Notes: generated from the sequence alone by a model not told the origin. A DNA stretch of 45,275 bases from Nanobdellota archaeon (GCA_013329215.1 DUKS01000029.1:426-45700); one strand, 5' to 3'; positions 503 to 22,297 are shown, counted from the stretch's first letter. Numbers and translations are program-made.

Positions 503-1693
503 ATGCTATTCAAAAAAGGCGAGCTGAAAGAATTGTGGCCCTTCTATTTATATTACTTGATTTTCGGGCTTTCATCCCTGATAATGCCTTTCATGATAAT
601 TTACTTCAGGGACCTGAATTTTTCATTCCTGCAAATTGCAATAATAATTTCAGGGTTCAGCATAGGGCAGTTTTTGTTTGAAGTGCCAACAGGTGCTTTT
701 GCAGATGGATTGAGCAGGAAAGTCTCGGTAATTATCGGCTTTCTGATGAATGCATTTGCAATCTTATTATTCCCATTGTTTGACAGCCCCTACGCCTTAT
801 TTGCGCTTTGGACATTTTCAGGGATAGGAATGAGCTTTATTAGCGGAGCAGAAGAAGCATGGGTTGTTGACAATCTTCATAAGGCAAAAAAGAAAGAGCT
901 GCAGCAGGAATATTTTATCAAAGCCGCAAGCATTGCTGCATTTGGGGCAATATTTGCTCCCCTGCTCGGCGCGCTTTTTGTCAAATCACATCCAATTAAG
1001 TGGCTTTGGCTTATTTTCGGGGCAGGATTTTTGATAAATGCAATAATCCTGTCTGTTTTTGCAAAGGAGCTTTACAAGCCGAAACGCGTCAGCTTTTTGA
1101 AAAGCCTTAAAGAGACGTTTAAGAACGGTGCAAAGGGGATAAAGTTTACATTTAGTCATAAGGTTATTCTGCTGCTGGTGTTAGGGGGGGCTTTTGCTAT
1201 TTTTATGGAATTTGCATCTGACGGCTGGCAGCCTCTTTTGGTTAATTTGTCAATGCCGAAATACGGGCTGGGCATTATGTTTTCTGTTGTGGCTGCTGTT
1301 TCAATGGTAGTGCCTTTTTTGTCAAGGCTTTTGCTTAGATTTAAGATAAAGAATGTGATAGCAATTACTATTTTATTAAATATGATTTTATTATTTTCAC
1401 TGATATTCCTATCCCCTCCAATGTTCATGGTTGCAGCTATAATCTTCGTATTTAACAATGGGATTTGGTATTTGAATAACCCGCTTTTGCAATCTTATCT
1501 TCATAAATTTATTCCTACAAAAATAAGGGCAACAGTTATTTCTACGAAAAGTATGTTCAATAAGCTGGTTATAATCTTAGGTTCGCTTGCAGCAGGCGTA
1601 TTGATGGACTATTTTGGTCCGCAAAAGGTAATTGCCTTTGGCGGCTTCTTTGGCATTTTTGCAATATGGTGCTATCTTAAGATAAAGGACTGA
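503..1693 (+). CDS. MFS transporter
   Basis: 396 aa with ~12 hydrophobic segments. MFS motif-A-like 'EVPTGAFADGLSRK' and the typical 'SGAEEAWVVD' and 'IPTKIRATVIS' segments. Confidence 0.9.
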   Translation: MLFKKGELKELWPFYLYYLIFGLSSLIMPFMIIYFRDLNFSFLQIAIIISGFSIGQFLFEVPTGAFADGLSRKVSVIIGFLMNAFAILLFPLFDSPYALFALWTFSGIGMSFISGAEEAWVVDNLHKAKKKELQQEYFIKAASIAAFGAIFAPLLGALFVKSHPIKWLWLIFGAGFLINAIILSVFAKELYKPKRVSFLKSLKETFKNGAKGIKFTFSHKVILLLVLGGAFAIFMEFASDGWQPLLVNLSMPKYGLGIMFSVVAAVSMVVPFLSRLLLRFKIKNVIAITILLNMILLFSLIFLSPPMFMVAAIIFVFNNGIWYLNNPLLQSYLHKFIPTKIRATVISTKSMFNKLVIILGSLAAGVLMDYFGPQKVIAFGGFFGIFAIWCYLKIKD

Positions 1694-1771
1694 TTCACGC
1701 CGGCAGGCTGGCTTTCTTATCGGCTTTTCTTCACAAACGCTTATATATTACGAAATCATACTATTTGATTT

Positions 1772-2572
1772 ATGACTCCCAAAACCCTTTTGGCGCTTTT
1801 GGCGTCTTCTGCTGTTCCTGCTTTGCCTTATGATGCTTATGCTGATGAAACAGCTGAAGCACCGATATGCGAAAGCCCGAAGGAAACAGAAATTGGCGCA
1901 AATGCCGGCTATGCAATGCTCAACGGGGAGTTCGGGAATACTGACGGAGCGCAGGTTAGGATTGGCGGCAATACATCGCTTTACACTTTTGGTAACGGGC
2001 AGCTGGTGCTTGACAGCAGTTTTATAACTGATTATTTTGGCTATGAAGGCAATGGCGTCCAAAAAGATTCCCTTACAGATGCTTACGCGCTTGTGATGTA
2101 CAACGGCTTTGAAGGCTACAGCGTTGGCGGCGGGATTAACCTTTTTTTCTTTGACGGCTCAGGTATGTACGCCTCTGGCCAGCCCATGGAGTTGACTGAT
2201 TATGCGATAGGCCCATCGCTTCGCGGCACAATCATTGCAGACCCTGTTAAGCTGGTTCTTGACTATTCGCTTGGCTTTGGCCAGTTGGGCAGCAACAGGG
2301 CTGACCTGGATTTCCTTTTAAAGAACAGGCTCGGGATAAACCTGGGCATTGGGTATGAAGGGTTTTCAGCTGATGTTTACACTGACCTTATCTTTAATTA
2401 TATGCCTTACAGCGAAGATTCCTCTTTTGAGCTTAAGTATGGCCTGCGCGTAGGATACGGGTTCATTGATTTCATGGCTGCCAATGCTTTTTACGAGCAT
2501 GCGGAATTTTACGGTATTGAGGCGAGGGACAGCGCAGATGCAGTTGGCGGCGGGTTCTCGCTGTTTTTCTGA
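1772..2572 (+). CDS. Secreted protein with outer-membrane beta-barrel-like pattern
   Basis: Signal-peptide-like N-terminus, ~12 amphipathic Gly/aromatic-rich strands, C-terminal ...GGGFSLFF. TATA-like TTATATAT at 1741-1748. Confidence 0.6.
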   Translation: MTPKTLLALLASSAVPALPYDAYADETAEAPICESPKETEIGANAGYAMLNGEFGNTDGAQVRIGGNTSLYTFGNGQLVLDSSFITDYFGYEGNGVQKDSLTDAYALVMYNGFEGYSVGGGINLFFFDGSGMYASGQPMELTDYAIGPSLRGTIIADPVKLVLDYSLGFGQLGSNRADLDFLLKNRLGINLGIGYEGFSADVYTDLIFNYMPYSEDSSFELKYGLRVGYGFIDFMAANAFYEHAEFYGIEARDSADAVGGGFSLFF

Positions 2573-4506: not shown

Positions 4507-5511
4507 TTATCTGTTTTTCAACAGTTCAAGAAATAATTCCAGGTCATTCTTCTCGAGCGTAAAACCGCCTGCTTTCTCATGGCCGCCGCCGATGAATGTC
4601 TTTATGTCTTTTTCAAATCCCTCTAGGAATTTGCCTGCGTCAAAATCCAAATTATCATGCACGCGCATGCTGCCAATCACTAAATGCTCTACAATGTTCA
4701 TCACAATAATAGGCCTTTCTGGCTTTATCAGCTTTGCAGCAAGAACACCCTGTATGTTCCTTGGCTCTGCAATGATGGCGCAGTCCACTTTGCCTATCTG
4801 CTTTACCTCAGGCTGCTTGCTGTAGTCGTTCTTAAGCATCGCCTTGTACTGCTGCAGCTGTACAGCCAGCGGATGCCTTATGTTTGTGAATGGCTCATAT
4901 GAATCAATACTTTTCAGCAGCTCAAGCGGTATGTCGCCGCTCCAGTTTATCCTTTTGCCTGTGTTCAGCGCGGACACGTGCCTTTCTATTTCAAGAAAAT
5001 ATCCTTCATTGAAATGGCTTTCCTGCTTCTGCATCATGTCAGGCATTGCTTCCATCGCATTGCTTAGCAGCGGCTCCGGTATCGCGTCCCTCTTGCCCCC
5101 ATCGCCAAAATAGCCGACCAGCGTGAGGAACAAAACATACGGGTCTTTGCTGTTTTGCATCAGGCGGTTATAAATCAGTGTTGTTGTTGACACTTCTTTT
5201 TCATCATGTATCACAATGTCAAACTTTTCTGCATTGCTGAACGGGTGGTGGTCGATTAATGCAATCACCCTGCCCTTGCCTGCAATATCCGGAGACGGCT
5301 GGATGTCAGTGCATATTACCACTTCAGCCTCTTTCTCAATATCTTGATCTTCTATAAGAAAAGGCATTCCTTTTGTCTTTGTCCTTACTGTTAATGCATG
5401 CGGCTTCAGTAGATGGTATATTAACGCTGCAGAGCACACGCCGTCGGCGTCCCAGTGCGAGCAAATCTGCACATGCCTGCCTTTGCAGACCTCAATCAAA
5501 GTGTGTTGCAT
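4507..5511 (-). CDS. DHH/DHHA1 phosphoesterase (RecJ-like family)
   Basis: Motifs HWDADG, IDHH and C-terminal GGGHEKAGG. Confidence 0.9.
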   Translation of the reverse strand: MQHTLIEVCKGRHVQICSHWDADGVCSAALIYHLLKPHALTVRTKTKGMPFLIEDQDIEKEAEVVICTDIQPSPDIAGKGRVIALIDHHPFSNAEKFDIVIHDEKEVSTTTLIYNRLMQNSKDPYVLFLTLVGYFGDGGKRDAIPEPLLSNAMEAMPDMMQKQESHFNEGYFLEIERHVSALNTGKRINWSGDIPLELLKSIDSYEPFTNIRHPLAVQLQQYKAMLKNDYSKQPEVKQIGKVDCAIIAEPRNIQGVLAAKLIKPERPIIVMNIVEHLVIGSMRVHDNLDFDAGKFLEGFEKDIKTFIGGGHEKAGGFTLEKNDLELFLELLKNR

Positions 5512-10705: not shown

Positions 10706-11410
10706 TTATTTTATTTCAGCATTGCCGCTCTTTACCAGCATTTCAGCAACCATTCCCGGCATCTCTATCTGGTCGTCAGGGTTGAATGGCCCGTACTTGT
10801 TCATATCAGGCCCCATGAACTCCGGGAGCTGGCATTTGATTGTAATGCAGCAACTTCCATCTGATTTATCAGTATTGGTTTTTAAACCTTTCGGTAGCGA
10901 AAGGTCAGGAGCGCCAGCGGCTGAAGCTTTCAGTGCGTCCGAGGGTTCATCAGCGCTTTCCGGTGCAGGAGCCTTATTGCAGCATATCTTCGGCAGCTCA
11001 TGGCTTAAAAGCGCGTGAAGCACCTTCTCCCTGTGCCCTGTCAGCGTGCCCTGCACAAGATTGAACAGCTCTATCTCTTCAGGCAATAAGGCGGAGAAAT
11101 CAAACGCCTTTCCTGAGCACCTTGACTGGAAAACAGCGGCCTGCACGATCTTGTCCTCGCGCCACTTGTATATGTCTGCCAGCAGCTTTTTAGCCTCCCT
11201 AAGCTGCGCCCTTGTCTTGTCAAGCTCCGCAGCGGCAAAAACGCTTTTCTTCTGCTCCTGCGATTCTATTATCGCCTGCTTCTCAGAAAAATATTTCACG
11301 ACATCGTCAAAGAATTTCGCGTCAACTTTCTGTATCTCCGCCCTGTATTTTTCCCTTCTTGCGAGGTCATAGAGAGTGTCAAAAGTAATTATCACTTCTT
11401 TTTCAGCCAT
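10706..11410 (-). CDS. GINS complex subunit (Gins51/Gins15-like)
   Basis: N-terminal 'LYDLARREK...IQKVDAKFF' and C-terminal B domain 'LPEFMGPDMNKYGPF...AEMLVKSG'; sits in the known GINS-L44e-S27e-aIF2a-Nop10 cluster. Confidence 0.88.
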   Translation of the reverse strand: MAEKEVIITFDTLYDLARREKYRAEIQKVDAKFFDDVVKYFSEKQAIIESQEQKKSVFAAAELDKTRAQLREAKKLLADIYKWREDKIVQAAVFQSRCSGKAFDFSALLPEEIELFNLVQGTLTGHREKVLHALLSHELPKICCNKAPAPESADEPSDALKASAAGAPDLSLPKGLKTNTDKSDGSCCITIKCQLPEFMGPDMNKYGPFNPDDQIEMPGMVAEMLVKSGNAEIK

Positions 11411-11469
11411 CTAGACAGGAGAAATGTGTTCTCTTTTAAAAGTATTTCTATGTTGCAAGCAATAGGTTG

Positions 11470-12699
11470 CTAAATCTTTGCCCAAATGTCTTTTCCGAGG
11501 ATTGTCCCGAGGCTGCCCCTCCTGCATTCCCTCTCTGTGAATGAGGCCAGGTTGTCCTTGCTCTTCCCGTCAAAAACAAGCAAAGGCACGGGGTCTGCCG
11601 AGTGCGCTTTCAGCTGACACGGCGTTGAATGGTCAGAAGTGACTATTATTCTTGCATCAAGCTTCCTTATGGCTGAGAACAGCTTTTTGTCTATAAGCTC
11701 AATCATTTTCTTCTTTTCCAGCGGCTTTCCGTCATGGCCGGGGATGTCTGTCTCTTTTATATGGATGTAGAACGCATTGAACCTGTTCCAGTCTGATTTC
11801 AGGTACTTTAATGAATCCCTTATCTCTGCATTAAGGCAGTCGTAGAGATGCTTATAGACGTCTATCGCCTTTATTTCCGGATAATTGACTTTAAGGATTT
11901 TCATGCCTGCAAGCTCTGCAATCCCTATCTCAAGCGGCATTCCTACAATTGCAGCCCAGCCTTTCTTTTTTGGGAATTCCGGGAGCCTGTTGCCTGCATC
12001 CCTCACCAGTATTGCGTTTGCCTGCAAAATCCCTTTCTTTCCCCTTGCAATGTTTACAGGGTCGTTTTCAAGCACTTTCCTGCTTTTCTCAACAAACTCG
12101 TTTATTATTGATGCTGTTTCCTCAGCTTCCCTTCCAAGCGGCTGGCACTCCTGGATTTCATTTGCAAATGCTTTTGCAACTCCGAAAGTGCCCTGCTTTT
12201 CATATGCAGGGTCCACGTTTGTGATCTTGTCTGAAAATTTGCCGTATAATACCAGGACGCCCCTGTGCTCTGTCGTGCTTTTGAACATGAATTTGCACGG
12301 CAGCTTTACTTTTTTGTTGATTGAATCAGCCAGTGCCTTTGCTTCGTTTGTTGTAAGGCTCCTTCCTGTTCTCCTGTCTAGTATCCTATACCCTTCCATT
12401 GAAGCGAAGTTTGCCCTTAGTGCAAGAAAGCCATTCCCGAGCTTTACGCCTGCGCCGTATGCTTCCAGCGGGCCGCGGCCTGTAAAATACCTGTATGGGT
12501 CATAGCCCAGAATAGCTGTTACTGCAACATCAGACTCTGGCGCAATCCCTTTCCCGACTGTCTGGCATAAGCCGCATATGCCGTTCTTTGCAAGAAAGTC
12601 AAGGTTGGGCTTTTTTGCCGCTTCATACGGCGTCTTGTTGTTCAGTTCCCTGCAGGGCCTGTCTCCTGCTCCATCAAGCACTATGAAGATTGTTTTCAT
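11470..12699 (-). CDS. apgM: 2,3-BPG-independent phosphoglycerate mutase (archaeal type)
   Basis: Motifs VLDGAGD, PESDVA, GRGPLEA, HIKETDIPGHDG, TSDHSTP, HSADPVP. Confidence 0.93.
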   Translation of the reverse strand: MKTIFIVLDGAGDRPCRELNNKTPYEAAKKPNLDFLAKNGICGLCQTVGKGIAPESDVAVTAILGYDPYRYFTGRGPLEAYGAGVKLGNGFLALRANFASMEGYRILDRRTGRSLTTNEAKALADSINKKVKLPCKFMFKSTTEHRGVLVLYGKFSDKITNVDPAYEKQGTFGVAKAFANEIQECQPLGREAEETASIINEFVEKSRKVLENDPVNIARGKKGILQANAILVRDAGNRLPEFPKKKGWAAIVGMPLEIGIAELAGMKILKVNYPEIKAIDVYKHLYDCLNAEIRDSLKYLKSDWNRFNAFYIHIKETDIPGHDGKPLEKKKMIELIDKKLFSAIRKLDARIIVTSDHSTPCQLKAHSADPVPLLVFDGKSKDNLASFTERECRRGSLGTILGKDIWAKI

Positions 12700-12789
12700 A
12701 TCCCTATTCCTACGCTGAATAGATTTAAAAGACTTTGGAATGGGGCGAATGGCACATATTAGGCGAGCAGGAGAAGCGTCAGCGCGGAT

Positions 12790-13503
12790 TTACTGCTTTG
12801 CGCGCTTCCATAGGTCCATAAAAAATTCACGCAACTGGCCTGCAAATGCCCTGCTTTCAAGCTTGACTGCTGCAGGCGATTCAACCCATGACAACAGAAC
12901 AACATAGTCTCTGAAAATAGTAATGCCCTGCGGCAGGTTGAAGCTTGTGTACCTCAGCTTTAACTTTGTATGCTTTTCCTTTGAATAGTATTTTATGTTT
13001 TTCAGCAGCCTGACATCAAGCCTTTTTTCTTTCCTGCGGGCAGCCAGATTCCTGAAAAACAGGTTTGCCTGTTCTGTTTTATTCTCTTCGTTAATGGAAA
13101 AGACAAGGTATGATTCTTTAGGCTTGGCATCAGAGATTAAGCTTGTGAAAAGGGTGAATATCGCTTTTTGCCCTTCATATAACTCCACGCTTTGCTTTGC
13201 CTGCGTTTTCTGCTTAAGCATAAGCTCAGGCAATGCCTGCTCAACCTGCTTCTTCTTTTCTTCAATGTAAGCAACCAGCGCCTTGGGGCTTGATGCCTGG
13301 TAATGCTTTACATTATTCCTGATTACATATGTTACTAATCCCCGCTTGGCGAGCTTGTCCATTACCTCATATATCTTGGATGAAGGTATGCCTGTTTTCT
13401 TTACAATGGCTCCTGCCTTGGACTGGCCGAGCTCTGCAAGCGCAGTATAACAGACGCTTTCGCTCCTGTTCAGCCCAATCTCCTGCAAAATATCTTCAAT
13501 CAT
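12790..13503 (-). CDS. TrmB-family transcriptional regulator
   Basis: N-terminal wHTH 'GLNRSESVCYTAL...TGIPSSKIYEVMDKLAKRGLV', then 'VELYEG'. Confidence 0.9.
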   Translation of the reverse strand: MIEDILQEIGLNRSESVCYTALAELGQSKAGAIVKKTGIPSSKIYEVMDKLAKRGLVTYVIRNNVKHYQASSPKALVAYIEEKKKQVEQALPELMLKQKTQAKQSVELYEGQKAIFTLFTSLISDAKPKESYLVFSINEENKTEQANLFFRNLAARRKEKRLDVRLLKNIKYYSKEKHTKLKLRYTSFNLPQGITIFRDYVVLLSWVESPAAVKLESRAFAGQLREFFMDLWKRAKQ

Positions 13504-13543
13504 AATATAGGATGCACTCAGGCTGTTTATTAATCTTTCTATT

Positions 13544-13564
13544 ACTACCCCTTTTAGTGGTAGC
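13544..13564. promoter_or_regulatory. Putative TrmB operator ACTACC-N9-GGTAGC
   Basis: Inverted repeat between divergent promoters; a near-identical motif lies next to the second TrmB gene (32975-32994). Confidence 0.55.
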
Positions 13565-13581
13565 TATATATTATCTGCCTT

Positions 13582-14946
13582 ATGCCAAATGCTTATTCCA
13601 TGGCAATACAAGAAAATAGCAGGGAAACAGGAAAGCGCAAAACACTGCAGGAAAGGATAGCTGAGCTTGAATTCCAGCCTGAAGTATATATCTATCCAAC
13701 GCCAAGGGTTTACAAGCCTCTTGATTTTCAATTGAACGCGGCTGATTTTGGCAATGAGCTGAATATTTATGTTCACATACCCTTCTGCAGGCAGATATGC
13801 TCTTTCTGCGGATACCTAAAAATTGCTGGCAGCGACGAAAATCTCAAAGCAGATTACGTTAATGCTGTGATTAAAGAGATTAACATGTACAGCCGGATTT
13901 TAAAAGGCAAAACAATAAAAACACTGCATTTTGGCGGAGGTACGCCTTCTTTGCTTTCAGTATCGCAGCTGGCAAGGCTTATTGATGCTTTAGTTGAAGC
14001 CAACCCAAGAATATTGGAAACATGCGAGGAAGTAAGCATAGAGGCTACGCCTGAATCTGTTGAGCAGGGCAAATTTGAAAATTATAAAGAACTTGGAATA
14101 AACAGGGTTAGCATTGGAGTCCAGACATTAAACAATGCAGAGATTGCTTTATCCCGCAGGCATAATCTGGCTGATTTTTCAATAAGGGCAATAGAAACTC
14201 TCAGAAAAGCAGGCATTCCAAACATAGTAGCTGATTTAATGATTGGAATTGAACACCAGACGCCGGAAAGTTTTGAAGCTTCTGCAAGGGGCTTAATACA
14301 GCTTATGCCGGAAACAGTAGAATTATATGCTTTGGGGCTGATGCCTCAGACAGCTTTGGGAAAACAGCATCATAATTTAATGGGAAACAAAGAAATATAT
14401 CTCTGTTATGATATTGGCAGAATACTATTCTTGGAGGCAGGCTATAAGCAGGATTGCCACAACAGGTATGCAATTCCCAATCGTGGAAGCTTTCTTCAGG
14501 AAGATTATGTGTTTCACGGCATGAGCCTGATTGGGTTTGGCGCAGGCGCAAGAAGCTATGCAGGGAATATGCATTACAGGAATGCTTACAATTCAACCAG
14601 CCCTAAGACGGCAGTTGCGGAATATATGCAAATGATAAATGGCGGGGGATTATCTGTTGAAAGCGGCATTTATTTAAGCGATGATGAAAAAATGCGCCAG
14701 TATGCAATCGGCCATATTGAAGCGCTTGATAAAAAAGAGTTTGAACAGCGCTTTGGGCTTAGTTTTGGTAATGCCTTCCCTGATTTGCACAGTAATTTGT
14801 TAAGGCTGGGGCTGGCGGCTGAAGACAAAGAAAGGCTTGTGCTTACAACAAAAGGTCTGAATTTCCGGGATCTTATCTGCACAGAGCTGTTTTCAAAAGA
14901 TGTGACAGCAGCGGAGGGGACTTATCGCCCAAGGCGCAATGGATAA
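13582..14946 (+). CDS. HemN/HemW-like radical SAM protein
   Basis: Motifs YVHIPFCRQICSFC (CxxxCxxC), HFGGGTPS, IEATPE, GINRVSIGVQT, IGFGAGARS and a HemN_C-like tail. Confidence 0.9.
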   Translation: MPNAYSMAIQENSRETGKRKTLQERIAELEFQPEVYIYPTPRVYKPLDFQLNAADFGNELNIYVHIPFCRQICSFCGYLKIAGSDENLKADYVNAVIKEINMYSRILKGKTIKTLHFGGGTPSLLSVSQLARLIDALVEANPRILETCEEVSIEATPESVEQGKFENYKELGINRVSIGVQTLNNAEIALSRRHNLADFSIRAIETLRKAGIPNIVADLMIGIEHQTPESFEASARGLIQLMPETVELYALGLMPQTALGKQHHNLMGNKEIYLCYDIGRILFLEAGYKQDCHNRYAIPNRGSFLQEDYVFHGMSLIGFGAGARSYAGNMHYRNAYNSTSPKTAVAEYMQMINGGGLSVESGIYLSDDEKMRQYAIGHIEALDKKEFEQRFGLSFGNAFPDLHSNLLRLGLAAEDKERLVLTTKGLNFRDLICTELFSKDVTAAEGTYRPRRNG

Positions 14947-15511
14947 GGTAATAATTATTTTCGGGTTTTCCGGCTCAGGAAAATCTACATTAGCTAACCT
15001 CATCGGAAAGAAATATGGCCTGCGGGTTGTCCATCCTTCAGGCATACTGCGGAACCTGTGCGAAGGCAAGCCTGTGGATATTAAAAATACAAGGCACAAC
15101 ACCGGGTTTTGGGAGACTGAAGAAGGCATAAGATTGTTCAAAAGCAGATTGGAAGAAAAAGAGCCTTCTGATGCTGTTTCAGACAGGCTGCTGTTGAAAG
15201 AAGTCAGCAAGGGCGATGTAGTCATCGACAGCTGGAGCCTTCCGTGGCTTGCTTCTAACGGAATAAAAATCTATCTTGAAGCAGATTTGGATGTAAGGGC
15301 TGAAAGGGTTGCAAAGAGGGACAGCATTAGCTATTCTCGTGCAAAACACATAGTTTCTATGAAAGACGAAGAAACACAAAAGCTGTTCAAAAGAATGTAT
15401 GGGTTTGATATTAAGAAAGACTATACTGTTTTTGTTTATGTGATTAATACAAACAGGCTTGGCAAACGCGAGGTTTTTAGATTGCTGTGCGATTATTTGG
15501 GCAAATGCTAG
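14939..15511 (+). CDS. Cytidylate-kinase-like nucleoside monophosphate kinase
   Basis: P-loop GFSGSGKST and 'IKIYLEADLDVRAERVAKRD'; overlaps the upstream stop by 8 nt. Confidence 0.85.
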   Translation: MDKVIIIFGFSGSGKSTLANLIGKKYGLRVVHPSGILRNLCEGKPVDIKNTRHNTGFWETEEGIRLFKSRLEEKEPSDAVSDRLLLKEVSKGDVVIDSWSLPWLASNGIKIYLEADLDVRAERVAKRDSISYSRAKHIVSMKDEETQKLFKRMYGFDIKKDYTVFVYVINTNRLGKREVFRLLCDYLGKC

Positions 15512-17127: not shown

Positions 17128-17277
17128 CTATCTTTTCTCTATCGTGTTAATAAATCCTGTTGCAATCAGCAGGACTGCGAATATGAAAAGTAAAAGCGGA
17201 ATCCTGCTGTATGCGTATGCCAAAGCGCCGAAGATTGCGCTTATGATCCCTGTCAGTTTAATGTTTTCCCAAGGCAT
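17128..17277 (-). CDS. 49-aa two-TM membrane peptide, last gene of putative RiPP operon; not in ORF track
   Basis: Hand translation MPWENIKLTGIISAIFGALAYAYSRIPLLLFIFAVLLIATGFINTIEKR; starts 3 nt after the methyltransferase stop. Confidence 0.6.
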   Translation of the reverse strand: MPWENIKLTGIISAIFGALAYAYSRIPLLLFIFAVLLIATGFINTIEKR

Positions 17278-17279
17278 GC

Positions 17280-17975
17280 CTATTGCCTCCTACAGATGAT
17301 ATAGACTGTTGTTTTATCTTTTATTGTCCTAATGCAATCAAACCCAGTATTCTTAAGCACTTCTTTTATTGCATTTAGAGGGAATATCCGCATTTCGTGC
17401 CAGTCTGATTCTTCAATCTTGCTTCTTGTATTAAGAAAGGTAAAGTGGTTTGTCAGCTTTGGGAATTGTATAAACGTGCTTTGTATTAGCTTATCCTTTT
17501 TGCTTAGGTCCCACAGAAATGTTGAATCTTTTGCCTTTCTCAGCAGGTTTGGGCTTATCACTTGAATGATAAGAACGCCGCCAGGATTAAGACAGCCATG
17601 GCAGGCATTGAATGTTGATTTAAGTTCTTCTCCGTTTCTATTGTACATAATTGTATTATAAAGGCAGATTACCGCATCAACCTTCGTTCTTAACGAGAAT
17701 CTGCGCATATCCATCTTTAAGCATTCAGCCCCTGTCTTTTTTTTGGCGATCGCGAGCATTTCCTTGCTTAAGTCGCTGCAGAGAACCTTGAATCCAAGCT
17801 TGATTAGCTCTGCAGCGTGCGCTCCTGTGCCGCATCCAAGGTCAAGTACTCTATTGCCGTTTGCATTATCTTGTATTATTTTTCCGATAAGCTTTGCTTC
17901 GTCAATGTAATGCTTGCCTGCTGATTGGGCCATTCTGTCATAAAACTGTGCTTTAGTGGTGTAGAGCTTCATCAT
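17280..17975 (-). CDS. Class I SAM-dependent methyltransferase
   Basis: Motifs VLDLGCGTG, DLSKEML, DMRRF, LNPGGVLI; 4-nt overlap with the radical SAM gene. Confidence 0.9.
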   Translation of the reverse strand: MMKLYTTKAQFYDRMAQSAGKHYIDEAKLIGKIIQDNANGNRVLDLGCGTGAHAAELIKLGFKVLCSDLSKEMLAIAKKKTGAECLKMDMRRFSLRTKVDAVICLYNTIMYNRNGEELKSTFNACHGCLNPGGVLIIQVISPNLLRKAKDSTFLWDLSKKDKLIQSTFIQFPKLTNHFTFLNTRSKIEESDWHEMRIFPLNAIKEVLKNTGFDCIRTIKDKTTVYIICRRQ

Positions 17976-18910
17976 TTCATGAGCCTCGCAAACTCATATA
18001 CAGAGTAAGGGTCTGTTCCGTACTGCCATTTCCTTAACGGGCATCCAAATTCAGAAGAGTTCTGCTCTTTGATTAAACCAAACAATCTTCCCGGAGAATG
18101 AAACATGGCTCTGTCATAGCGCGATGCCCCATCAGTTTCCTTAAGGCCCAGCCCGCTCATAAACACGCAGGGAATGACATAATCCTCCTTTGTTATTGTA
18201 GCCATCCTTCTCCCTGCGCTGCATCCGGATTTTGGAACCCCTGTTTCGATATACTCCTCTATGGAAAAGTCGGGCAGTGTTATGCTCAGGTTTTCGGCTT
18301 TCTTTTTTCTATGCATCTCCAGAAAAAGCCTGAAATAATCCTTCGGGGCTGGCATTATGCTGTTCTCTTTGACATTCCCTAATTCCTGGGCAAGGCTGAA
18401 ATTTACTCTAAGCCCGAAATGCGAGCAATAACCGATTACATCCATGACATTTTCAATATTATATTTGTTTATTGTCATTTTCATCAGGGGAGTGATACCG
18501 GCTGAGCCAAGATTTTTTACAGCGCATTCCAGCTTGCCAAAAGCGCCGCGCCCCCTTATGCTGTCATGATAACCTTCCATGCCATCAATGCTTATCTGCA
18601 CTGTTGAGGGCCCCGCGTCTGCCAGAAGCTCGGCACGCCTTTTGTCTATTAGTGTGCCGTTTGTCAGGAGGGCAACATCTATTCCATAATCCCTTGCGTG
18701 CTTTATCATGCCATAAACCTGGGGGTTAAGCAAGGGCTCCCCGCCTGTAAGCAGCAGCGTTTCAATGCCATTTTCATAAAATTCATCTATCCTGCTTAGG
18801 GCTTCTTCCCTGCTGATTTGGCTGTATTCCGAAGGCCCGCCCAAGTGGCAGTGCTTGCAGGACTGGTTGCAAGCCCCTGTAATTTCCCAATACAATGTGT
18901 CTATAGCCAT
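17972..18910 (-). CDS. Radical SAM enzyme with reduced SPASM/twitch domain (putative peptide maturase)
   Basis: WEITGACNQSCKHC, LTGGEPLL, LTNGTL, VQISIDG, HDSIRGRG; C-terminal CSAG..(x)..IPC and GCP...DPY. Confidence 0.9.
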   Translation of the reverse strand: MAIDTLYWEITGACNQSCKHCHLGGPSEYSQISREEALSRIDEFYENGIETLLLTGGEPLLNPQVYGMIKHARDYGIDVALLTNGTLIDKRRAELLADAGPSTVQISIDGMEGYHDSIRGRGAFGKLECAVKNLGSAGITPLMKMTINKYNIENVMDVIGYCSHFGLRVNFSLAQELGNVKENSIMPAPKDYFRLFLEMHRKKKAENLSITLPDFSIEEYIETGVPKSGCSAGRRMATITKEDYVIPCVFMSGLGLKETDGASRYDRAMFHSPGRLFGLIKEQNSSEFGCPLRKWQYGTDPYSVYEFARLMK

Positions 18911-18922
18911 TTTAGTCGTGCA

Positions 18923-19126
18923 TCAGGCAGGTATTGCGGCGCATTCCACATTTTTGGGCTTAATGTAAGCTTTGCAGTCTTCCATTACTCCCATGTATAT
19001 GCAGGGGATAGCTGCGCATTCCCGGTTTGTTGGCTCGTATTCCCAAACTTTAGCGGTTTGTACCGCAGGCTTGTTTTGTTTCGCTCTCTTCAGCTCGTCT
19101 CTTATTGTGTCTGCCAGTGTATTCAT
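18923..19126 (-). CDS. Putative RiPP precursor peptide with duplicated ECAAIP core
   Basis: 67 aa; SD GGAGGAG upstream; PxNxECAAIP occurs twice; stop lies 13 nt upstream of the radical SAM start. Confidence 0.75.
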   Translation of the reverse strand: MNTLADTIRDELKRAKQNKPAVQTAKVWEYEPTNRECAAIPCIYMGVMEDCKAYIKPKNVECAAIPA

Positions 19127-19204
19127 TTTTTTGTCTCCTCCGCAAATCCTGCTGGATTTTTGGAATAATGTATCCTTTCCGTGGGCTTATATAAGGCTAA
19201 TCCA

Positions 19205-19230
19205 TAGAGATTCTAGATATTCTAGATATG
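19205..19230. promoter_or_regulatory. Three 9-bp direct repeats TAGA(G/T)AT(TC), putative operator
   Basis: TAGAGATTC TAGATATTC TAGATATG lies between the two divergent TATA boxes. Confidence 0.45.
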
Positions 19231-19291
19231 CCGGGATTTGCCGCAAAGCCCATCAGAAACTATATAAAACAAAGCCTGCATCCTGTAAGAT

Positions 19292-20206
19292 ATGAAGCGC
19301 AATGTAATGCTCATGGGTGGCAAGACTTATGTTATTTCCCTTCCCGCCCCCTGGATAAAGAAGCACGGCATAAAGAAAGGCGAAGAGCTGGACGTGCAGG
19401 AAGAGGGCGGTCGTGTTGTGATAGAGAGTGGGAAAGGTGCGAAAATGCCTCGTCAGAGAAGAATAGATGTTTCTAATTTGCCGCCGCTTGTATATAGAAC
19501 AATGATAAGAGTATATGAGGAAGGATTTGATGAAATAGAGATAAAGTTTGATGATCCTGTGTCTATAAGCAAGCTTGAATCTGTATCTGATGCTCTTATA
19601 GGGCTTGAAATTGTAAAACAAGAACGGAATTCATGGATACTAAAAGTGATATCTGAAACCTCAAAAGAGGATTTTGAAAGTGTATTTAGGCGGTTATTCT
19701 ATCTCATCGAGGCTTTAGGTGATGAAACGCTTGATGCAGCCAAAAATGGAAATAAGACTGCCTTGCAGAAGTTGCTTGGCAAAGAGCACAATATTAACAA
19801 GTTTGCTTATTATGCATTAAGGCTTTTAAACAAATATGGCTATAAGGAAGGTTATAGAACACAAATGTTTTATTATATTCTCGAGCAATTGGAACGGATT
19901 GGTGATGTATATATAGAGCTGATAAATCTGCTTTTGAAATCAGACCTTAGACTAAAAAAAGAAATTGTTGATTTAGTGGGGAAGATAGTGGCTTTATTCC
20001 AAAAATGCCATATTGCTACATTTGAGCTTACAAAAGGGCATGCTGTGGACTGTTCTCTGCTGCATGAGACTATAAAAAAGAGGATTAATGATTCCTTGGA
20101 CACAAAGTCTGCCGAAGAGGTGAGAATATTACTTTGCTTAAGGGAGTTACGCTATGAGATTATAAGTATATTAGGGGCGCAATTAGCCCATATCAAGGAT
20201 ATGTAA
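19292..20206 (+). CDS. AbrB-domain/PhoU-domain regulator (phosphate uptake regulator family)
   Basis: N-terminal 'GGKTYVISLPAPWIKKHGIKKGEEL' and PhoU-like 'LERIGD'. Confidence 0.85.
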   Translation: MKRNVMLMGGKTYVISLPAPWIKKHGIKKGEELDVQEEGGRVVIESGKGAKMPRQRRIDVSNLPPLVYRTMIRVYEEGFDEIEIKFDDPVSISKLESVSDALIGLEIVKQERNSWILKVISETSKEDFESVFRRLFYLIEALGDETLDAAKNGNKTALQKLLGKEHNINKFAYYALRLLNKYGYKEGYRTQMFYYILEQLERIGDVYIELINLLLKSDLRLKKEIVDLVGKIVALFQKCHIATFELTKGHAVDCSLLHETIKKRINDSLDTKSAEEVRILLCLRELRYEIISILGAQLAHIKDM

Positions 20207-22297
20207 TAACTGTTTTGCCTTCCTAATATACCTGTCTCTTGCTTTTGGGCTGTAATAGCTTCGTTTTGGATTGTTGCATTTTTTGGCAAACAGCAAATTG
20301 ACGTAAATAGCTTCTTTCATGTATTGCTGCAGGGGATTATAATGGAATTCATTTCCCTCCGCTTCAGATTGGATTATGAAATAATCAATAAGCTCTTTTT
20401 TTGTGGAAATATCCAATTCCAATTCCTCTTGTTCAAGTAGGCTTACCAAGTCAAAGAAAGGGCTGGCGTAGCTTGCAGAAACCGGGTCTATTATAACCAC
20501 CCCGCTTTCCCCGGTATCTAAAACATTGCCTGTATGCGTATCACAATGGCAAAGTGTACGCCTTGTTTTGTCCAGCTCCCCTGCGATTTGTATCACCCGT
20601 TGCTTTCTCTTTTCATCCAGTTTAATTCTTGGCAATATCTTAACGCGCATTATGCCTGTATAATCATAATCTTCAAGACCTAAGCCATATTTACTATGCA
20701 TTTTCTTATCTCTCTTGCCTGTTGAATTAAAGGAGATAATTGCATCTATCACTTGCATAAGCTTTTTCTTTTTGAAATCTTTAAGCTGCTTCGGGGTGGG
20801 GGATTCTGCATCGCCAGTTTCTCCTGCATAAACTCTTGCCATATCCTCAAGTGAGCATGCCCTAAACTCTTGCTCCCGCTTGCCATTCCTGAAATTGTGT
20901 GCGAGTGTAGCGATAACATAAGCATCCCCCGCTTCAGTTACATGCACCCTTCCCTTGGGGAATGCCAACCCTTTGCAATTATCCCTGAGAAACTTAAGCA
21001 TTGCCACATGTTTTTGGGCAGCTTCTTCTGAAGGCTCTTTCTTGATTATAACATCACCATCTGTCAAAACTGCGGGATAGTTCGGATGTACTCCTGTTAG
21101 CTCAAAGCTTCCGATTTCTGCTTTTTTAACCAGTATTCTGTCAAATGCTTCCCTTGCTTTTGCCGCAATCTCCCTGTCTTCAGAGTCGTTGCTATTTTCA
21201 AGAATGAAGAGGCTGTAATAACATTTCATATTTAACGGGTCTAAAGCAATTTCTTCAAATATCATAGTGAGTTCATGGTCTCTGTCAAACCCTTCGGCCG
21301 AGTCATTCTGGGCATAACAGTGGCAAAAATCTAATACTCGATTAGATATGCGCCTTCTTACTGCAACCGACTCGGCAAACGCTTTTTTTTCTGGGGTGGC
21401 ATAATCCCGCCTGTAATCTCCATCAAATGGCGAAGGAGCAGGTATACATTCAAAATTGTTTCTTCTTTTTGTTGAAAACCTGAAAGTGGCATACGCGGGG
21501 CTCCGATGCCTAAATGGGATATATTCTGAATACTCGATTCCATCAGGGTTATTCCTGCTTTTCATTAGTTCTAAAGCGGATAGGGTTGCTTTACTGCTAT
21601 TGCCTAAATCTCTTAAACAGAGATGAAGGGTTGCAAGAGACATATTTGCTGTAAATAAAACATGCTCTGCTTCTGAAATATCCCATTTGTCGGGGTTATT
21701 TTCCTTGCACCACTCAATAAACTCTTGTGCTTCAGTTTTTAATAGTTCATAGAAGGTGATTGCATTGCCGAAGACGCCAAAACTATCTTCTTTAGGATAT
21801 TTTTGGAACAATATTATATCTGCTATACTTTCATAAGCATCCATGAGAAAAATCCTTCTTATTCTTTCATTAATTGCATCTGTTTCTCTCTTTTCAAAAC
21901 AGTTTGAAGCTAGTCCAAAATATGCCCTTAAGGCATATAGATCTTTTCTTTCGGATATATCCGTCTGGTACTCTGGAGAACCAATAAATATCTGCGCCCT
22001 AAGCTTATCACGCGTTGCATCTTTAAACATAGAGAGCGCATTTTTAATCCTTTCAGATAACCCATCTTCGCGTCCTGTAATCCGAATATGCGGATTTTTA
22101 AAAAATTCATCTGATTCTAATTCTCTTATCTCTTTTTGCATCCTGCCTTTATGGGCACGATATGCTTCTAGAACCGGGTTTGTTTTGGGGTGCTGCAAAG
22201 CACCAACAGTTATGGGAGATTCTCTATCTGTTGAGGTTGCCAATTGAACTGCGAATAAATTTTCTATTCCTTTTTTAAGTATGTCATCGATTCCCAT
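20183..22297 (-). CDS. Large helical protein with C-terminal APH/choline-kinase-like phosphotransferase domain
   Basis: Brenner-like 'LCHCDTHTGNVL', 'VIIDP' and 'PFFDLVSLL'; TPR-like helical N-terminal part; AT-rich. Confidence 0.7.
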   Translation of the reverse strand: MGIDDILKKGIENLFAVQLATSTDRESPITVGALQHPKTNPVLEAYRAHKGRMQKEIRELESDEFFKNPHIRITGREDGLSERIKNALSMFKDATRDKLRAQIFIGSPEYQTDISERKDLYALRAYFGLASNCFEKRETDAINERIRRIFLMDAYESIADIILFQKYPKEDSFGVFGNAITFYELLKTEAQEFIEWCKENNPDKWDISEAEHVLFTANMSLATLHLCLRDLGNSSKATLSALELMKSRNNPDGIEYSEYIPFRHRSPAYATFRFSTKRRNNFECIPAPSPFDGDYRRDYATPEKKAFAESVAVRRRISNRVLDFCHCYAQNDSAEGFDRDHELTMIFEEIALDPLNMKCYYSLFILENSNDSEDREIAAKAREAFDRILVKKAEIGSFELTGVHPNYPAVLTDGDVIIKKEPSEEAAQKHVAMLKFLRDNCKGLAFPKGRVHVTEAGDAYVIATLAHNFRNGKREQEFRACSLEDMARVYAGETGDAESPTPKQLKDFKKKKLMQVIDAIISFNSTGKRDKKMHSKYGLGLEDYDYTGIMRVKILPRIKLDEKRKQRVIQIAGELDKTRRTLCHCDTHTGNVLDTGESGVVIIDPVSASYASPFFDLVSLLEQEELELDISTKKELIDYFIIQSEAEGNEFHYNPLQQYMKEAIYVNLLFAKKCNNPKRSYYSPKARDRYIRKAKQLLHILDMG

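Follow-up and report, generated by a model that had tools for sequence, protein, structure and literature searches.

We analyzed a 45,275-nt stretch of DNA from a Nanobdellota archaeon (GCA_013329215.1, DUKS01000029.1:426-45700), referred to here in its full length as the window, and within it a region of interest at 17,128-20,206 that an earlier note, made from the sequence alone, had singled out as a candidate locus for a modified peptide. Open reading frame (ORF) calls and the sequence itself reveal four coupled ORFs on the minus strand between 17128 and 19126, encoding a small Cys-containing peptide, a radical S-adenosylmethionine (SAM) enzyme, a class I methyltransferase, and a membrane peptide (Table 1). 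The tight coupling reported in the earlier note was borne out: by their coordinates, 12 nt lie between the peptide and enzyme genes, the ATG of the methyltransferase gene overlaps the stop of the enzyme gene by 4 nt (ATGA), and 2 nt separate the methyltransferase and membrane peptide genes, a trivial departure from the 13, 4, and 3 nt given before. A Shine-Dalgarno-like GGAGGAG (19135-19141) stands 8 nt ahead of the ATG of the first gene, and neither the 67-aa peptide that it encodes nor the 49-aa membrane peptide matches any Pfam family. We are fairly confident that the first three genes constitute a peptide-maturation system, and we give a probability of about three in four to the reading that they represent a new family of peptides made by ribosomes and modified after translation (RiPPs), in which a multi-unit precursor is modified by the radical SAM enzyme and methylated.

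Table 1. Features of the cassette and its upstream region, in window coordinates.
Feature	Position	Strand	Remarks
Precursor peptide gene, 67 aa	18923..19126	-	Charged, helix-like leader of ~34 residues, one full unit, and one truncated unit
Full modification unit, R35-E-C-A-A-I-P-C-I-Y-M-G46	18989..19024	-	Fits the family unit
Truncated second unit, V60-E-C-A-A-I-P-A67, then stop	18926..18949	-	
Radical SAM enzyme, 312 aa, Twitch-like C-terminal domain	17972..18910	-	PF04055, invariant Cys, SkfB match
Class I SAM methyltransferase, 231 aa, TylM1/DesVI/CypM-like fold	17280..17975	-	PF13649, PDB sequence and fold matches
Hydrophobic hairpin peptide, 49 aa, accessory	17128..17277	-	Kept within the genus only
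TATA-like box (TTATATAA) of the peptide operon	19187..19194	-	Within the GGATTAGCCTTATATA block conserved with L001; putative promoter
Three tandem 9-bp repeats between divergent promoters	19205..19231		Candidate operator
Divergent AbrB-domain/PhoU-like regulator	19292..20206	+	PF04014; link to cassette uncertain

The peptide had been described as carrying two copies of PxNxECAAIP 25 residues apart, with four Cys in total. Both copies are present, PTNRECAAIP spanning residues 32-41 and PKNVECAAIP residues 57-66, as are the four Cys (37, 42, 51, and 62). Between the copies, the codons for A-A-I-P (GCA GCT ATC CCC and GCC GCA ATA CCT) differ only synonymously, in keeping with the selection on the peptide that had been suggested. 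Calling it a two-core peptide proved imprecise, as only one of its units is complete (R35-G46) and the second copy ends in ECAAIPA-stop where its relatives go on with P-C-x-Y. Judged by the sequences of the family described below, the unit that in fact repeats is a 12-mer, R-E-C-x-x-h-P-C-x-Y-x-G, which corrects the description by ECAAIP copies. Read in the frame, offset by one base, that takes up the final T of the Pro codon, the sequence gives CLMHD-stop (window 18912-18929, minus strand), ending 1 nt ahead of the ATG of the enzyme gene, and it is therefore possible that the truncated second unit differs by a single base from a longer ancestral unit. We considered an assembly error as the source of the truncation and rejected it, since two assemblies agree; over 18700-19300, the Logan contigs of runs X1 and X2 match the window exactly, although these runs may be source samples and so may not be independent of the source. 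No second copy of the precursor was found in the window's own genome.

In a scan of one genome per species (185,579 species), 78 loci were found to encode relatives of the enzyme, but only three belong to its family: L001, L002, and L003, with enzyme identities of 79%, 50%, and 46% (next best 28%), all in metagenome-assembled genomes (MAGs) of Nanoarchaeota. All three have a short ORF immediately upstream of the enzyme gene and an orthologous methyltransferase gene overlapping or abutting its stop, and the order peptide-radical SAM-methyltransferase, tightly coupled, is the same in the window and the three related loci. The earlier note had proposed a search for ECAAIP-like cores upstream of the enzyme's homologs, and such cores are present at all three related loci with DNA as well as in the 23 peptides discussed below. 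The upstream peptide of L001 contains RECAAIPCAYLG and a degenerate second copy, that of L002 contains three copies of REC[S/A]TIPCAYLG, and that of L003 contains RECSTIPCNYSG and a degenerate copy. Together with the window, a Cys-containing precursor with a leader and a core therefore lies beside the enzyme at 4/4 loci with DNA, the arrangement expected of a thioether RiPP pathway. Between the window and L001, the nonsynonymous (dN) and synonymous (dS) divergences are 0.146 and 0.641 over codons 1-46 of the precursor, 0.11 and 2.08 over the core codons 32-46, and 0.125 and 1.06 for the enzyme. The three units within the L002 gene differ from one another by 7-9 synonymous changes and 0-1 amino-acid change, so that synonymous sites are saturated among repeats of the same gene while the amino acids are kept. 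Such a pattern marks a precursor that is translated, constrained in sequence, and variable in its number of cores.

To collect further precursors, we searched with a profile built from the four peptides of the window and L001-L003, and of 237 candidates 13 proteins reached E <= 10. A 12-sequence profile, run exhaustively with HMMER against 1.84 billion representatives, yielded 20 proteins at E <= 1e-3. The resulting family has 23 peptides of 56-93 aa with 41 full units, one in 8 peptides, two in 12, and three in 3, and the consensus of the unit is [R]-E-C-[A/S]-x-[I/L/V]-P-C-x-Y-x-G. E, C, P, and C occur in 41/41 units, R in 37/41, Y in 39/41, and G in 35/41. The leaders diverge widely yet keep an N-terminal amphipathic pattern, while the units are conserved, and in one peptide (P0151) the units abut with almost no spacer. 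We had estimated by our own arithmetic that an exact six-residue repeat in 67 aa has a chance expectation of ~3e-5, but conservation in 23 homologous peptides is the stronger argument. Two proteins were set aside and left out of the unit count: P0149, a 997-aa repeat protein with RECAAIRC, and P0156, which has 90 aa, no leader, and RECSQLPAAY repeats without the second Cys, and which may be a divergent member or a decayed or spurious ORF.

The family is rare. Family-level matches were found in 2/61 related genomes, one of them the genome of the window itself (1.4 Mb, 95% complete) and the other that of a congener. In a sample of the phylum, 6/401 genomes had a match at E <= 1e-40, only two of them at ~508 bits; the other four lay at 139-151 bits, on a par with an unrelated paralog in the window's own genome. 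A scan of metagenome contigs gave no family member among the 80 loci listed, where the best match had 32% identity over residues 6-251, and members may have fallen outside that listing. Such a patchy spread is typical of accessory metabolism.

The second gene had been described as a radical SAM enzyme with a Twitch-like CSAG...PC and a GCP..DP tail, and all of these motifs are present. The protein matches Radical_SAM (PF04055, 9.8e-25) and Fer4_12 in Pfam, and has a CxxxCxxC motif at C14/C18/C21, CSAG (C230), PC (C248), GCP (C290), and D300-P301. In an alignment of 21 family members, C230, C248, C290, and D300 are invariant; C14, C18, and C21 are conserved in at least 90% of the sequences, as expected of a radical SAM core, and the only other conserved Cys are C230, C248, and C290. 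Among 5.8 billion proteins, a word-indexed search gave 4515 candidates, of which 2131 matched at E <= 1e-3, and these include a tight clade of 22 protein clusters (P0001-P0022) with 37-100% identity and 195-719 bits; the best of the remaining matches has 126 bits. Those members of the clade that are named are MAG proteins labelled Nanoarchaeota. For the enzymes P0002-P0022, the pairing with other peptides and methyltransferases is given only by the equal size of the longest contig (1819, 2709, 2288, 2780, and 12326). The Pfam domains SPASM (PF13186) and PqqD (PF05402) are found in none of the 22 clusters, while many of the remoter matches have them. We did not find a RiPP recognition element (RRE) as a PqqD-like domain or partner, as judged by PF05402 matches in the enzyme and its neighbors, and the protein leaves no room for an N-terminal RRE because it begins directly at the SAM-cluster motif (residue 14). 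The ESM Atlas gave generic radical SAM clusters only.

To place the enzyme among characterized proteins, we compared it with solved structures. The sactipeptide thioether synthase SkfB (6efn) was the best match of the sequence profile in PDB (2.6e-32, 115.5 bits), followed by anSME at 66.4 bits. An AlphaFold2 model of the enzyme (mean predicted local distance difference test, pLDDT, 92.1; predicted template-modeling score, pTM, 0.90) also had SkfB as its first Foldseek match (5.6e-17, template-modeling score, TM, 0.70), followed by BlsE, SuiB, anSME, and CteB, and the epimerase EpeE was among the structural neighbors. The alignment with the SkfB fold spans 299 columns, and a Twitch-like C-x17-C hairpin motif is invariant, as is C290. 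SkfB is thus the best solved relative, and the scores for the curated NCBIfam families of SkfB (TIGR04403, 75.8 bits against a cutoff of 300) and PapB (66.2 bits against 340) do not place the enzyme in either. The earlier note had regarded a grouping with AhbC/D or the sulfatase maturases as evidence against a peptide substrate; the enzyme falls into neither group, nor does it fall with NirJ. Complex predictions of the enzyme with the peptide, two 4Fe-4S clusters, and SAM scored 0.29, 0.52, and 0.56, and one control scored 0.67, and we did not use them either way.

The identification of the third gene as a class I methyltransferase also stood, with a Pfam match to Methyltransf_25 (PF13649) at 1.9e-17. 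Its orthologs in L001-L003 are 39-62% identical and lie downstream of the radical SAM gene, so the gene is conserved along with the enzyme at 4/4 loci. A word-indexed search returned seven close homologs of at least 51% identity, after which scores fall to 75 bits, a gap like that around the enzyme clade. Among PDB sequences the nearest is 1wzn, followed by the amino-sugar N-methyltransferases CalS10, DesVI, and TylM1 (1e-12 to 1e-13) and by CypM (1e-7). The predicted model (pLDDT 92.4) matches the folds of TylM1, CypM, CgnL, and PsmD at TM 0.83-0.86, or 0.78-0.86 when CcbJ is included. The protein scored below the NCBIfam cutoffs for the daptide methyltransferase (NF041820, 58.6 bits against 175) and CpaM (61.6 against 180), and PADLOC returned a match to the mad2 methyltransferase. 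The methyl acceptor would most likely be an amine.

Our direct observations are which genes are present, that the unit is conserved by purifying selection, where the enzyme falls by family and fold, and how rare the system is, whereas each chemical step of the following scheme is inferred from known families. The precursor consists of an N-terminal amphipathic leader and one to three copies of the 12-residue unit. As no separate leader-binding RRE is encoded, the compact enzyme would have to bind the leader or precursor directly. SAM would be cleaved at the C14/C18/C21 cluster to yield a 5'-deoxyadenosyl radical, which would abstract a hydrogen atom within the unit, and an intramolecular cross-link would then be closed, most likely as a thioether from one or both Cys of the unit. 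A unit Cys may be held during this step on the open iron of a single auxiliary cluster with three conserved Cys ligands (C230, C248, and C290). Open coordination sites at auxiliary clusters have been described in SkfB, CteB, and MoaA (PMC6231123), and the cross-linking Cys or Sec is reported to bind directly to an auxiliary cluster in PapB and Tte1186 (PMC10177961); such a mechanism has been described for the synthases of sactipeptides and ranthipeptides. The co-translated TylM1/CypM-like methyltransferase would then add at least one methyl group, most likely on an amine and perhaps on a new N-terminus after proteolysis by an unlinked gene, and removal of the leader and export would depend on genes outside the cassette. 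Two invariant Cys in each unit and a three-Cys auxiliary site fit a thioether synthase best. For the nature of the bond itself, a thioether is our leading candidate at a little under even odds.

Several points weigh against this reading. All 85 NCBIfam matches of the enzyme are far below their curated cutoffs, and the top match is a non-peptide enzyme, AhbD (102.1 bits against a cutoff of 500, over residues 7-168 only). The paper on the SkfB structure cautions that sequence networks and similarity do not predict function among SPASM and Twitch enzymes (PMC6231123). The invariant D300 could serve as a fourth ligand of the auxiliary cluster and so close the open site. In the window peptide the second unit is truncated, and the two units of peptide P0155, which retain E-C-x-x-I-P-C, have I-H in place of Y-x, so that Tyr is missing from both. 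Co-location was seen directly at only four loci, none of which has a gene for a protease, a transporter, or an RRE, as the earlier note had already remarked for the window. Among the sequencing runs matched to the region, none was RNA, and the five matched are DNA, four of them possibly from source samples.

The same pathway might carry out a different chemistry, such as a Tyr-centered C-C or C-O cross-link of the streptide, triceptide, or ryptide types, epimerization, or Cys oxidation, in which case the Cys pair would be a disulfide or metal site. The near-invariance of Tyr and the conservation of R, E, and G agree with this, as does the presence among the structural neighbors of SuiB, which forms a Lys-Trp cross-link, of EpeE, and of anSME, in a superfamily where sequence similarity does not foretell the reaction. 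We nevertheless regard these chemistries as less likely than a thioether, as the paired Cys and the three-Cys site suit thioether synthases best, SkfB is the clear top match by both profile and fold, and P0155 has dispensed with Tyr while keeping both Cys. Somewhat more doubtful still is the idea of a DPANN-specific RiPP class with chemistry beyond the sactionine and ranthionine types, in which an RRE-less enzyme that has one three-Cys auxiliary cluster would work through abutting units iteratively, forming for example a Cys-Tyr or double-Cys bicyclic link that is followed by amine-type methylation, and the product would serve a symbiont of reduced genome in dealing with hosts or competitors.

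Readings that give the peptide another fate fare worse. A small cofactor or metal-binding compound could be derived from it, in the way that PQQ comes from PqqA and mycofactocin from MftA, with units excised after modification. Glu and Tyr are conserved in each unit, units can abut with hardly any spacer, as in P0151, and NCBIfam shows generic similarity to MftC at 84.7 bits and to PqqE at 58.3 bits, but these scores are far under the cutoffs of 265 and 381 and do not make the enzyme a member of either family. No PqqD- or MftB-type chaperone, peptidase, or additional tailoring enzyme is encoded nearby, and the very patchy distribution is ill-suited to a cofactor, which leaves this origin improbable. 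We consider it slightly more improbable again that the small ORF encodes a Cys-rich metal or redox mini-protein that is not a substrate, while the enzyme and methyltransferase act on some other molecule in a heme-type reaction like those of AhbD and NirJ or a viperin-like nucleotide reaction. The highest NCBIfam scores do go to AhbD and to a NirJ-type family (95.1 bits against 515; TIGR04545 and TIGR04051 for AhbD/NirJ), and PADLOC aligned residues 6-161 of the enzyme with positions 2-160 of the 257 in its pVip model at 69.7 bits. These matches, however, cover only the common radical SAM core (residues 6-168), are far below the cutoffs, and assign the enzyme to neither AhbD/NirJ nor the viperins, and its C-terminal half is Twitch-like, unlike the nucleotide-binding part of viperin. 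The outgroup homolog in L004 (28% identity) sits among heme-synthesis-like genes, as judged by ORF translations alone without a family search, but the contexts of both L004 and a further outgroup locus, L079, are uninformative for the cassette, and no heme or nucleotide genes lie beside the cassette at any locus. At each locus the peptide directly precedes the enzyme, and conserved units that vary in copy number and follow a variable leader are typical of a precursor.

Of the cluster outlined in the earlier note, the peptide, enzyme, and methyltransferase are conserved, whereas L001, which is of the same genus, is the only related locus to share the membrane peptide and the AbrB/PhoU regulator, which places both outside the conserved core. 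The counterpart of the membrane peptide in L001 (6640-6795) has 51 aa and shares a YAYS+xP segment; no homolog lies downstream of the L002 methyltransferase, and L003 ends ~100 nt past its methyltransferase. The regulator is syntenic in L001 only, and a different gene lies upstream in L002. Its AbrB-type domain is supported (PF04014, 1e-9), while the PhoU half of the earlier description has a weak signal (Pfam E 0.03, below the cutoff; TIGR02135 E 0.0013). The 3 x 9-bp repeat that had been noted between the divergent genes is present as TAGAGATTC/TAGATATTC/TAGATATGC, and at the same place in L001 (~4638-4665) there is also a 9-bp tandem repeat, of a differing sequence (AATTATATA type as against the TAGATATTC type of the window). 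In both genomes the repeats lie just upstream of the conserved GGATTAGCCTTATATA block, which we read as the putative TATA region of the operon, and the AbrB-domain regulator may recognize a lineage-specific operator here. A sigma-70 and terminator scan of the region relied on bacterial models and is not meaningful for an archaeon.

Beyond the regulator, a gene for a 704-aa protein (window 20183-22297, minus strand; L001 1511-3709, plus strand) converges on the AbrB/PhoU gene with an overlap of 24 nt, and the pair is syntenic in L001 only; the only recognizable part of this protein is a C-terminal APH/choline-kinase-like domain (PF01636, 8.1e-8). The neighbors in the window are housekeeping genes, namely TruD, a cytidylate-kinase-like protein, a HemN-like radical SAM protein, a TrmB regulator, and phosphoglycerate mutase. 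The HemN-like protein (454 aa, 13582-14946, plus strand; PF04055 and HemN_C) is unrelated to the cassette, and the end of its gene overlaps the start of the cytidylate-kinase-like gene (14939-15511). Elsewhere in the same genome, locus L167 (G000 contig C14, ~10832-14587) has two tandem radical SAM/SPASM ORFs, 1-1350 and 1477-2436 (both plus strand), encoding proteins of 449 aa, with an N-terminal extension of ~110 aa, and 319 aa. Both match PF04055 and PF13186, and the locus could be a second, unrelated radical SAM maturase locus.

The cassette offers a compact, well-defined test case. It comprises three genes, its 12-residue unit has four invariant positions, natural variants carry one, two, or three units, and the maturase is unusually small and RRE-less. 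It could show how a minimal Twitch enzyme recognizes and processes repeated units, what role the three-Cys auxiliary site plays, and whether symbiont-like archaea with 1.4-Mb genomes make specialized peptides, and if the cross-link were to prove new, the unit would be a short, portable cyclization tag. Its apparent novelty lies in a precursor family and an enzyme clade that falls under every curated family cutoff, is RRE-less, has a single three-Cys auxiliary site, and is so far confined to Nanoarchaeota-labelled MAGs. A survey from 2025 listed 221 predicted biosynthetic gene clusters in Nanoarchaeota and predicted ranthipeptide and sactipeptide clusters across archaea, including DPANN, none of the radical SAM type having been characterized; before the survey's own work, the only validated archaeal RiPPs were two lanthipeptides from Haloarchaea (PMC12144867). 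Such antiSMASH-type predicted clusters are similar in kind to the cassette. In the available parts of the literature on RiPPs, radical SAM enzymes, and ranthipeptides of DPANN and Nanoarchaeota, we found no paper that names or describes the unit or the enzyme clade, and the supplementary tables of the survey may list these MAG clusters.

Known systems resemble the cassette in its parts. PapA, the precursor modified by PapB, also carries repeated Cys-containing motifs. PapB, CteB, and Tte1186, the SPASM maturases of ranthipeptides and sactipeptides, are alike in being radical SAM peptide maturases that form Cys thioethers, the substrate Cys reportedly touching an auxiliary cluster, but they have full SPASM domains with two auxiliary clusters, while the enzyme clade has no PF13186 match. 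A Twitch domain is a truncated SPASM domain with one auxiliary cluster, and SkfB carries an N-terminal RRE in addition (PMC6231123). The closest parallel is the SkfB/SkfA pair of the sporulation killing factor, a sactipeptide, where a radical SAM enzyme, with a single-cluster Twitch domain that ours probably shares, is likewise encoded beside a Cys-containing precursor, and where one Cys before and one after a beta-hairpin correspond to CSAG...PC. SkfB differs in its RRE and in having more C-terminal Cys; our enzyme starts at the SAM-cluster motif and has only three auxiliary Cys, and the precursor of the cassette is multi-unit, unrelated in sequence, and from an archaeal host. The methyltransferase shares its fold with CypM, the N-terminal dimethyltransferase of linaridins, with CgnL of crocagin, and with the sugar N,N-dimethyltransferases TylM1 and DesVI (sequence E values of 1e-7 to 1e-13), but the identity is only 17-23%, and the C-methyltransferase PsmD matches equally well.

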